IMG/VR virus record: IMGVR_UViG_2778261643_000010
Source of the DNA: a virus
Taxonomy: Duplodnaviria > Heunggongvirae > Uroviricota > Caudoviricetes
DNA length: 24,518 nt
Strand: one strand, 5' to 3'
Position 1 is the first letter of the stretch. Each line of letters opens with the position of its first letter. The notes below the pieces were generated by a model. It made no database searches. It was given only the letters and a program-made list of their open reading frames with translations, and was not told the origin of the DNA. Of the stretch, positions 8,184-10,424 are shown one piece after another. Both the position numbers and the translations under genes were made by a program.

Positions 8184-8200
8184 ATTGCTCTAATAATTCC
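8184..8200 (+). promoter_or_regulatory. C1 operator-like 17-mer ATTGCTCTAATAATTCC
   Basis: Matches the consensus at 14 of 17 positions and lies immediately after the stop of the 7481-8182 gene. Confidence 0.5.
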
Positions 8201-8205
8201 ATATT

Positions 8206-8240
8206 TTTAAAACGTGATGTACACTCATCACGTTTTTTAT
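8206..8240. terminator. Bidirectional intrinsic terminator hairpin
   Basis: Stem AACGTGATG pairs with CATCACGTT around a 6-nt loop, with an A-run before and T6 after. Confidence 0.6.
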
Positions 8241-8249
8241 TAGAGCAAT
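8233..8249 (-). promoter_or_regulatory. C1 operator-like 17-mer in inverted orientation (ATTGCTCTAATAAAAAA on the minus strand)
   Basis: Matches the consensus at 14 of 17 positions and forms an inverted pair with the 8184 site across the terminator hairpin. Confidence 0.45.
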
Positions 8250-8263
8250 CAAAAAGGTGCACT

Positions 8264-8482
8264 ATGTGGCCATTCCGACGGAAATATCACTACTGGCTGA
8301 TCGCCTTTGTTACGCCGACCGGCGGTATCAGGCATGTCATCACCAGGTATCGCAACAAGAGACTCACCTTAGCCAGAATTTTACAGGCTGCCATAGGTGA
8401 GGGACTGGATACAAATTGCGTAGTCCTTCCTCCTTCATACTTAGGAAAAATGACCGAAGCACAAGCTAATACGGAACTTTGA
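8264..8482 (+). CDS. Small hypothetical protein (72 aa)
   Basis: ORF with AAAGGTG six nt upstream of the ATG. Confidence 0.35.
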   Translation: MWPFRRKYHYWLIAFVTPTGGIRHVITRYRNKRLTLARILQAAIGEGLDTNCVVLPPSYLGKMTEAQANTEL

Positions 8483-8483
8483 A

Positions 8484-9747
8484 ATGAGCACTTCAGCACA
8501 AAACCAATCAATCGAAAATGTATCTATCCCTGATGTCCTGAATGCCGGTATCCCGGCCATTATCCAGAACATCCGGGCCGCGCAACGCCGCGTTAGTTGT
8601 GATGACCTCACAGCACGTTTTTTTTGATAATGCGGTTCAGTCAGCGGAGATGCTTCACGCACAGCTTATTGATGTTTATAACGCAGAAGCTGATAGCCAT
8701 AACTCCCTGGTAGATGCAGCTGAAAATATGCAGTTGGATCTCGGTCTGAAGGGTAAAGAAATTGAAGAGCTTCAGCTGCAAATTGAACATTTGAAACGCC
8801 AGCAACAGGACGCGATCGACGATGCGACGCATGACGCCAACCAGCGTGCTGATAATGCCGAACGTATAAGCATTGAGCTGGAAACAAAACTCAATGAAAT
8901 GACCGCGATGGTTGAACTGCGGAACTCACAGATTTCAACGCTAAAATCTCAATATAAAGAGATCATGAAACTTGATCCTTTTAACCTTGAGAAACGCTAT
9001 AACAAAGCTAAAAGCGAGCGACAGGAACTGCGTAAGCAGGTCGCCGACCTTAACCAACAGCTCAAAAAAACTATTAAAGATGCAAGCGAAGCGCGCGTGG
9101 CATTTGCTAATAAAAAAGCAGAGGTTACCGCGCTGGTTAATGAGAATGCCAAATTTGCGACGCTCAAGAAGGAAATGTATGGCATTACTGAGCGCCGTTT
9201 CCCTGCAAGCAAACTTCATCCGACGTTAGGGCAAATCTCCTTCTTCCCGCGCCTCCTGGCTTATGGGATCTCATCGCCTAAAGAGTTCAATAACGAGCGT
9301 CCTTATATCGTTTCTAAGCTGGACTTTGCTTATCAGTTCTGCTGCGACATGGGCTATGCCATTGATATCCGAATCAACGAATGGTTGATGCCAAACTTCC
9401 AGCCGTTGGCAATTTTCCGCGAGTTCCAGCCGGAAGGTTGGGTAGAGTTCTTCCATGAATTGATCTGTAAAGAGATGGAAAGCCGCCGCCCGGAACTGGT
9501 CCGTCGAGTTGAGTGGGCGCAAGAGGTTATGTTAGCAGATGCAGAGCTGCCGTTCGAACCGGAATTCATTGATGATCTGGCAACTAAAGGGCTGCATACC
9601 CTGTTTGATGTGGTTACCCGCCGTCATGAGCAGTTGGTTGTCGAATTGGGTTTAGAGGAAACTGCGGCAAGAAGACTTCTCGATGTTTGCTATGCACGTA
9701 GCGATGCATGGGAAAAAGAGAACGGCGGCACTATTTACGTTCGCTGA
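8484..9747 (+). pseudogene. Coiled-coil protein with a C-terminal globular domain, split by a +1 frameshift at a T8 tract (8618-8625): frame-0 ORF 8484-8627, frame-1 ORF 8542-9747
   Basis: A 47-codon ORF from ATG 8484 stops immediately after the T8 run. The 401-aa ORF continues in the next frame, and its own N-terminal 28 residues look out of frame and lack a ribosome-binding site. A T7 run would fuse the two. Confidence 0.45.
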
Positions 9748-9767
9748 TAGTTACAGTGTCACTTTTA

Positions 9768-9800
9768 ATGCTGGTGGAGTGCTCCCACCAGCATTTTTTT
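9768..9800 (+). terminator. Rho-independent terminator
   Basis: A 10-bp stem (ATGCTGGTGG pairing with CCACCAGCAT) around a 7-nt loop, followed by T7, directly after the 9747 stop. Confidence 0.75.
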
Positions 9801-9819
9801 CGTCCAATGAGGAGGGCAT

Positions 9820-10326
9820 TTGAGTATTTTCAATAAACACGCACACCAGGAACGTCCGTACATCGTCATAGTAGATATTGATGGGACGATATCAGAGGCA
9901 ACGGAAGACAGGCTGCATTTACTTCCACCACCTGGCAAAGGTGCATTAACAGAGCACTGGAACGAGTTTAACCTTGCCTGTGACACTGATGCTCCCATCA
10001 CTCCAGTTATTGATATGGTGCGCCAGTTGTCCGGCATTTACACCCTCTGGTTTGTAACCGGGCGCTGTGAGATAGCCAGGGATAAAACACGAGCCTGGTT
10101 GCGTAAGCACGTAACAAATGGGGCTGAGCCTTTGCTATCTATGCGTCCTGCCACCGATGACAGAAATGACGGTCCAGCAAAGATTGATCTCCTGAAGAAA
10201 ATTGGTCTAAGTAAAATTGCGTTCGCGCTGGAAGATAAGATTGAAGTGGCGCGTGTTTTCAGGAGTCACGGCGTACTTACGTTAATGGTCAGGGAGTATG
10301 AAAACGCGCTTCTCCATCAACAATAA
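9820..10326 (+). CDS. HAD-superfamily phosphatase (polynucleotide 3'-phosphatase-like; TTG start)
   Basis: Contains the HAD motif I VIVDIDGTI. The rest of the fold assignment is by general resemblance. GAGGAGGG lies 5 nt upstream of the TTG. Confidence 0.55.
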   Translation: MSIFNKHAHQERPYIVIVDIDGTISEATEDRLHLLPPPGKGALTEHWNEFNLACDTDAPITPVIDMVRQLSGIYTLWFVTGRCEIARDKTRAWLRKHVTNGAEPLLSMRPATDDRNDGPAKIDLLKKIGLSKIAFALEDKIEVARVFRSHGVLTLMVREYENALLHQQ

Positions 10327-10342
10327 TTGCTCTAATAAGTCT
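10326..10342 (+). promoter_or_regulatory. C1 operator-like 17-mer ATTGCTCTAATAAGTCT
   Basis: Matches the consensus at 15 of 17 positions and overlaps the stop of the HAD gene. It is followed by the same ATTTTTAAAAC element seen after the 8184 site. Confidence 0.5.
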
Positions 10343-10424
10343 TGATTTTTAAAACAGAGAAAGTGAAAATAAAAACATGCCGCAAGGCGCGGCATGTATC
10401 CAATCAATCACAGGAGCTGAAAAT

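Follow-up and report, generated by a model that had tools for sequence, protein, structure and literature searches.

Two 30-bp direct repeats in a P1-like phage-plasmid: probable C1 operators joined to predicted promoters

What are the two direct copies of a 30-bp element that bound a 2.1-kb interval in a P1-like genome: the ends of a module across which cargo is exchanged, as the initial annotation of this DNA proposed, or the control regions of neighbouring transcription units? The DNA in question is IMG/VR virus record IMGVR_UViG_2778261643_000010 (Caudoviricetes), a stretch of 24,518 nucleotides that was analysed as a whole and is called the window here. It derives from a P1-like phage-plasmid, positions 59-10515 being 98.6% identical to P1 74027-84482 (blastn), and the E. 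coli plasmid NZ_CP122822.1 is 100% identical to it over 7900-10520. Judged from the sequence, the two copies are very probably promoter cassettes under repressor control in a P1-like plasmid prophage, corresponding to the known C1 operators Op86a and Op88, and the 2.1-kb interval is one operon, not a mobile cassette. The P1 and P7 GenBank records and the literature already contain the sites, the repressor, the predicted promoters and the neighbouring hsd hot spot; because everything central to it is already annotated, the finding carries little weight as a discovery. What the analysis flags in addition is a conserved, mostly unannotated small open reading frame (ORF) and a recurrent extension of the operator.

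Read directly from the sequence, the first copy (8184-8213) consists of ATTGCTCTAATAA, TTCCAT and ATTTTTAAAAC, and the second (10326-10355) of ATTGCTCTAATAA, GTCTTG and ATTTTTAAAAC; the outer 13 and 11 bases are identical in register, and the spacer between them agrees at two of its six positions. The repeat that had been described, a 17-mer resembling an operator plus a shared block, present twice, is borne out, and its occurrence lies far above chance, with five window matches to ATTGCTCTAATAAATTT at three or fewer mismatches against 0.09 expected from shuffled sequences. Its starts had been placed correctly, its ends (8214 and 10356) one base too far to the right. The 11-mer ATTTTTAAAAC is found at two places in the window, both of them in the 30-mers, and at three in the whole of P1. 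When the copies were compared with each other, no similarity was found in the flanks outside the 30-mers; a recent segmental duplication of the two regions was rejected on the ground that these flanks share nothing.

Three sites at the interval have the 13-bp core without a mismatch; they are given here with their agreement to the C1 operator consensus:

8184-8200, plus strand: putative C1 operator OpmgRa/Op86a, ATTGCTCTAATAATTCC; 14 of 17 positions
8233-8249, minus strand: putative C1 operator OpmgRb/Op86b, inverted, ATTGCTCTAATAAAAAA; 14 of 17 positions, with P1 and P7 annotation
10326-10342, plus strand: putative C1 operator OpmgT/Op88, ATTGCTCTAATAAGTCT; 15 of 17 positions

The P1 record (AF234172) carries protein_bind features under these names at exactly the three window sites, and in the P7 record (AF503408) the same sites are labelled Op(sht[a]), Op(sht[b]) and Op(hea). 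Position, orientation and flanking genes are the same in P1 and P7; compared with the annotated operators, the window sequence is unchanged at Op86a and at Op86b and differs by one base at Op88. The published consensus of the P1 C1 operators, 22 in number, is 17 bp long and exactly ATTGCTCTAATAAATTT (PMC8546580), the same as the one assumed in the initial annotation; this identity, together with the orthology to the P1 and P7 sites, points to the 17-mers as C1 operators. The c1 gene lies outside the window, past its end; in NZ_CP122822.1 a C1 repressor is annotated next to pacB. The P1 record further connects Op88 with the earlier GenBank entries M25414 and X98146. The inverted core at 8233-8249 had been overlooked in the first description of the locus. 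Elsewhere in the window, 5460-5490 corresponds by orthology to Oppp/Op83 of P1. Its minus strand has ..ATGTGCACTAATTAATTT.., in which the 5′ end departs from that of the P1 operator CATGCACTAATTAATTT, and the window scan at three or fewer mismatches to the consensus did not detect it.

Predicted promoters of the P1 record fall on the same positions:

8185-8213, plus strand: predicted sigma-70 promoter PpmgR, transferred by alignment from the P1 record; -35 TTGCTC at 8185-8190, a 17-bp spacer, -10 TAAAAC at 8208-8213
10327-10332 and 10350-10355, plus strand: -35 and -10 (TAAAAC) of the predicted promoter P2pmgT (P1 record)
10342-10347 and 10365-10370, plus strand: -35 (TTGATT) and -10 (GAAAAT) of the predicted promoter P1pmgT (P1 record)

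In both PpmgR and P2pmgT the -35 hexamer occupies operator positions 2-7 and the -10 hexamer positions 25-30, where it ends the 11-mer (8203-8213 in the first copy). Since the -35 lies inside the operator and the -10 in the ATTTTTAAAAC block, the 30-mer can be read as an operator plus a predicted promoter; ATTTTTAAAAC would provide a T-rich spacer and the -10-like TAAAAC, and the likeness of the two copies would reflect the use of the same functional blocks twice. With the 30-mer being a predicted promoter, the 2.1-kb "module" becomes a C1-repressed pmgR-pmgS(-pap) unit with the promoter of a further unit behind it. The proposal that the module is under C1 control holds in part: Op86a, according to the P1 record, "controls expression of pmgR and pmgS", while Op88 is no regulator of the module that it borders and stands at the head of the unit that follows. 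Both operators begin no more than a base away from the stop codon of the gene before; the TAA of pmgQ (8180-8182) stands one base before Op86a, and the pap stop codon shares its last base with the start of Op88. In a lysogen, monomeric C1, aided by Lxc, would sit on the operator and occlude the -35 from RNA polymerase, and inactivation of C1 would lead to transcription of the pmgR-pmgS(-pap) unit and of the unit behind Op88.

Several observations weigh against this interpretation. Both promoters are predictions only, their TAAAAC does not end in the customary T, and neither site was called by a generic sigma-70 scan, which requires T at the sixth position of the -10. In Cronobacter phage JK004 the hexamer linked to Op86a is TGAAGC. 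Op88 has a second candidate promoter, P1pmgT, whose -35 lies in the "variable" spacer, and it carries G at position 14 where P1 has A, its binding by C1 being predicted from sequence. No transcript start data were found, and the P1 RNA-seq paper is silent on pmgR, pmgS and pmgT.

The arrangement has a counterpart within P1. At Op72a/P1ban, too, a -35 TTGCTC is located at operator positions 2-7 and a -10 at 25-30, with a second, inverted operator nearby, and the P1 record, in its entry for P1ban as a sigma-70 promoter, omits the word "predicted". However, the operators of Op72a/P1ban overlap (a divalent site) and its -10 is TAATAT, whereas those of the window's Op86 region are separated by 49 bp around a terminator hairpin and go with a weaker -10, TAAAAC. 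Sites of this kind are also known from mycobacteriophage L5, in which many asymmetric stoperators for a monomeric repressor are spread in intergenic gaps, where they act mainly as orientation-dependent blocks to transcription. The P1 operators are similarly dispersed and asymmetric; repressor and sequence are unrelated.

Each copy had been described as followed by a hairpin. Both hairpins are real, but they are not equivalent in kind, and the first overlaps the end of its 30-mer:

8209-8238, both strands: palindromic terminator-like hairpin AAAACGTGATG/tacact/CATCACGTTTT with a T-run (fold)
10375-10397: hairpin in the leader of the Op88 unit, starting 20 nt past the second 30-mer

The first of these (8209-8236; dG -13.4, z -5.5, on both strands) is framed by an A-run and a T-run, takes in the last five bases of the 30-mer fills the gap between Op86a and the inverted Op86b and overlaps the -10 and the expected start. 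With a 7-bp core stem, four GC pairs and a following TTTTTT, 8209-8238 classifies as an intrinsic terminator; a generic terminator scan passed over it, probably owing to the A-run and T-run, which lengthen the stem. This hairpin would halt transcripts that arrive from pmgQ. Transcripts from PpmgR would start about 7 nt past the -10, and because they begin inside the hairpin they would lack its 5′ arm and read on. Instead of the operator that it is annotated as, Op86b might be no more than the complementary arm of a long hairpin. In JK004 and in Salmonella plasmid pCFSAN058588, the PmgS proteins of which are 69-70% identical to that of P1, the stem has two compensatory pairs and the operators are unchanged. 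Both relatives keep operator, hairpin and inverted operator before pmgR, as well as an Op88-like operator before the small ORF. The layout of operator, terminator and inverted operator before pmgR is thus conserved, with compensatory changes, at about 70% identity. The leader hairpin of the Op88 unit is kept in position and differs in sequence across three lineages. Its T-run is present on the minus strand only, and it resembles a leftward terminator, yet the P1 genes there are all directed rightward. An Rfam scan of the whole window returned no family.

The 11-mer could also prolong the repressor site on its 3′ side, making contact with C1 or the co-repressor Lxc or being required for DNA bending, in which case the functional operator would comprise about 27 bp. 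A T-rich box followed by TA does recur in register among the annotated C1 operators of P1, all of which were considered: eight of 18 have at least four T in the five positions 20-24 and then TA at 25-26, against a background of 0.002-0.003, although this pattern was chosen post hoc, after the data had been seen. The box is present at Op86a and Op88 and also at operators whose promoters are annotated with different hexamers, among them Op51, Op53, Op68 and Op83; at Op53 the box is not the -10 of the promoter (listed without "predicted"), because the annotated -10 is located inside the operator. The hexamers that the box forms (TAAGTC, TAAGTG, TATGTC, TAAAAC) are poor -10 matches, and JK004 retains the T-run even where the TA is lost. 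On the other hand, the published consensus has only 17 bp (PMC8546580), half of the operators are without the box, Op86b, Op55 and Op2a among them, and at Op72a this register is taken by a good -10 (TAATAT) and there is no T-run. We consider an extended operator unlikely, and prefer to see in the 11-mer part of a predicted promoter, a reading that the recurrent box supports as well.

A second alternative is that the 30-mers are copies by descent, either through duplication of a promoter cassette or through gene conversion between operators. A downstream block identical at 11 of 11 positions exceeds what a hexamer would need, and in P1 it is nearly unique to Op86a and Op88. The likeness does not extend beyond the 30-mer, though, four of the six spacer bases differ, and in distant relatives the two sites diverge block by block (TTCTTTAAAAC versus ATTTTTAGATA in pCFSAN058588). 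Common descent of the copies is quite improbable in our estimation; it would, moreover, be compatible with the functional reading as operator plus promoter.

Between the copies lie, as had been stated, a 72-aa ORF, a frameshifted coiled-coil gene and a HAD phosphatase. The features from the upstream unit to Op88 are:

7481-8182, plus strand: pmgQ (hdmD), last gene of the upstream unit (ORF list, P1 annotation)
8264-8482, plus strand: pmgR, 72 aa (P1 annotation)
8484-9747, plus strand: pmgS, the frameshifted coiled-coil gene, with one additional T at 8618-8625
9767-9802, plus strand: intrinsic-terminator-like hairpin (stem 9767-9795) and T7 after pmgS, strong (fold and terminator scan)
9820-10326, plus strand: pap, HAD/PNKP-type phosphatase with a TTG start (PF25109, P1 annotation)

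Is this gene content exchanged between the operators? Short repeated units of promoter and hairpin between genes are known from T4-type phages as PeSL cassettes, which flank insertions and deletions and give rise to recombinant circles (PMC2839356, PMC4122927), and by this precedent the operator-hairpin cassettes of the window might be recombination substrates that bound exchangeable cargo. Two further points speak for it: a known hot spot, variable region 8 (PMC9603915), directly adjoins the Op88 unit on its right, and pap, which abuts Op88, is missing in pCFSAN058588. Yet every one of the 19 matching phage records carries the interval whole, and at least 80% of a query spanning it is present in 634 of the 959 matching plasmid records. 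A synthetic junction of the kind that recombination between Op86a and Op88 should yield was found in none of these 959 records at 80% coverage or more, and both partial copies examined, in which the right-hand copy is missing, end at IS1 truncations. The mosaic junction itself (10515/10516) is located 160 bp past the 30-mer, after the hairpin and the conserved small ORF and at the start of the next gene; at the far end of the replacement (approximately 17119) there is no operator within three mismatches; and the left flank of pap is a terminator, not an operator. Neither of the two traits that would mark PeSL-like units, junctions at the repeats and natural recombinants between the copies, was found. 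Recombination at the cassettes is thus very improbable, and the suggestion that they are boundaries for cargo exchange did not hold up: in P1-like plasmids the operators are not the mosaic junctions.

The comparison of gene content between the operator sites across P1-like relatives, by which the initial annotation had wished to see its proposal checked, gave an essentially invariant picture at the level of Punavirus. In 54 P1-like phage-plasmids, the 21 genes with the highest conservation include pmgR and pmgS (PMC9603915). Inside the interval, gene content varies in one respect only: the diverged Salmonella lineage of pCFSAN058588 has no pap. There an Op88-like site follows 64 nt after the pmgS stop (examined piece 4261-4344), and pap thus looks like a lone gene inserted or deleted between a terminator and the promoter that follows. 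The distant relative D6 is without the whole pmgQ-pap block and has no ATTGCTCTAATAA in the region examined, and it is uninformative on operator boundaries.

Among the genes of the interval, pmgR is essential in P1, the phenotype of its loss being unjoined heads and tails (PMC9024508), while pmgS and pap are non-essential (PMC10695390). In pmgS a run of eight T at 8618-8625, versus seven in P1 and in vB_EcoM-673R5, splits a gene of 420 aa. An assembly error in the homopolymer could account for it, or else a mutation that is tolerated, the latter because pmgS is non-essential in P1. The same run must also be present in NZ_CP122822.1, given the complete identity over this region. The plus-strand terminator at 9767-9795 between pmgS and pap had gone unnoticed before. 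It is strong and separates pap from pmgS, and pap, with its TTG start, has a good ribosome site and no annotated promoter. Searches against Pfam gave no match for PmgR, PmgQ or the small ORF.

To the right of Op88 the unit begins with this small ORF and then gives way to foreign DNA:

10425-10511, plus strand: 28-aa hydrophobic ORF MNTAFKIIMAAIYFWLFSIIFGGIVAHG with an AGGAG ribosome site, first of the Op88 unit (ORF comparison)
10516-17119, minus strand: replacement segment with hsdRSM in place of P1 pmgT-pmgU-pmgV (blastn against P1)
10591-13767, minus strand: hsdR of the EcoR124I type (protein match)
13829-15085, minus strand: hsdS (ORF list)
15082-16638, minus strand: hsdM (ORF list)

The small ORF is unannotated in the P1 and P7 records, and a longer version of it is Orf75 of phi456. 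JK004 (53 aa) and pCFSAN058588 (46 aa) both preserve the membrane-like segment at its N-terminus, and ahead of the ORF the block CCAATCAATCA..GGAGC is invariant.

The variable region starts at 10516, that is, 173 bp after the Op88 17-mer. The junction at the right-hand end of the P1 match was placed by blastn. While the Op88 unit is followed by hsdRSM in the window, the same region holds pmgTUV in P1 and upf86.8 and the genes following it in P7. The HsdR protein is essentially that of EcoR124I (2288 bits to PDB 2w00). A link of type IC hsd loci to P1 flanks has been described (Tyndall et al. 1997, Mol Microbiol 23:729, as cited in PMC12707154), and the P1 record notes such a link for the EcoDXXI and R124/3 hsd loci; likewise, the hsdR-distal flank in the window is the Op88 segment (P1 84263-84482). 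In contrast to the IncF plasmids, which keep an 89-bp flank, the window has its hsd locus in an otherwise intact P1-like prophage, in which only pmgTUV is replaced.

The predicted Op88 promoter is directed towards hsdR, which converges on it with its 3′ end, and between the promoter and hsdR (10327-10600) no plus-strand terminator was detected. A combined proposal, which we would call quite improbable, is that the T-run/TA box is an extended C1/Lxc element and that loss of C1 from Op88 would switch on the small membrane-protein gene as well as antisense transcription into hsdR. If true, restriction activity would be tied to the lysogenic or lytic state in the variants that carry hsd.

Finally, an 89-bp piece of the Op88 unit (10432-10520) is found next to a type I hsdR in about a quarter of the 959 plasmid matches, in plasmids other than P1-like ones (IncF and further types). 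Among the plasmids that do not cover the interval, most of those in a sample taken at even spacing have this fragment only, beside hsdR; in one example the order is IS1, the 89 bp (8001-8089 there), hsdRSM and phd-doc.

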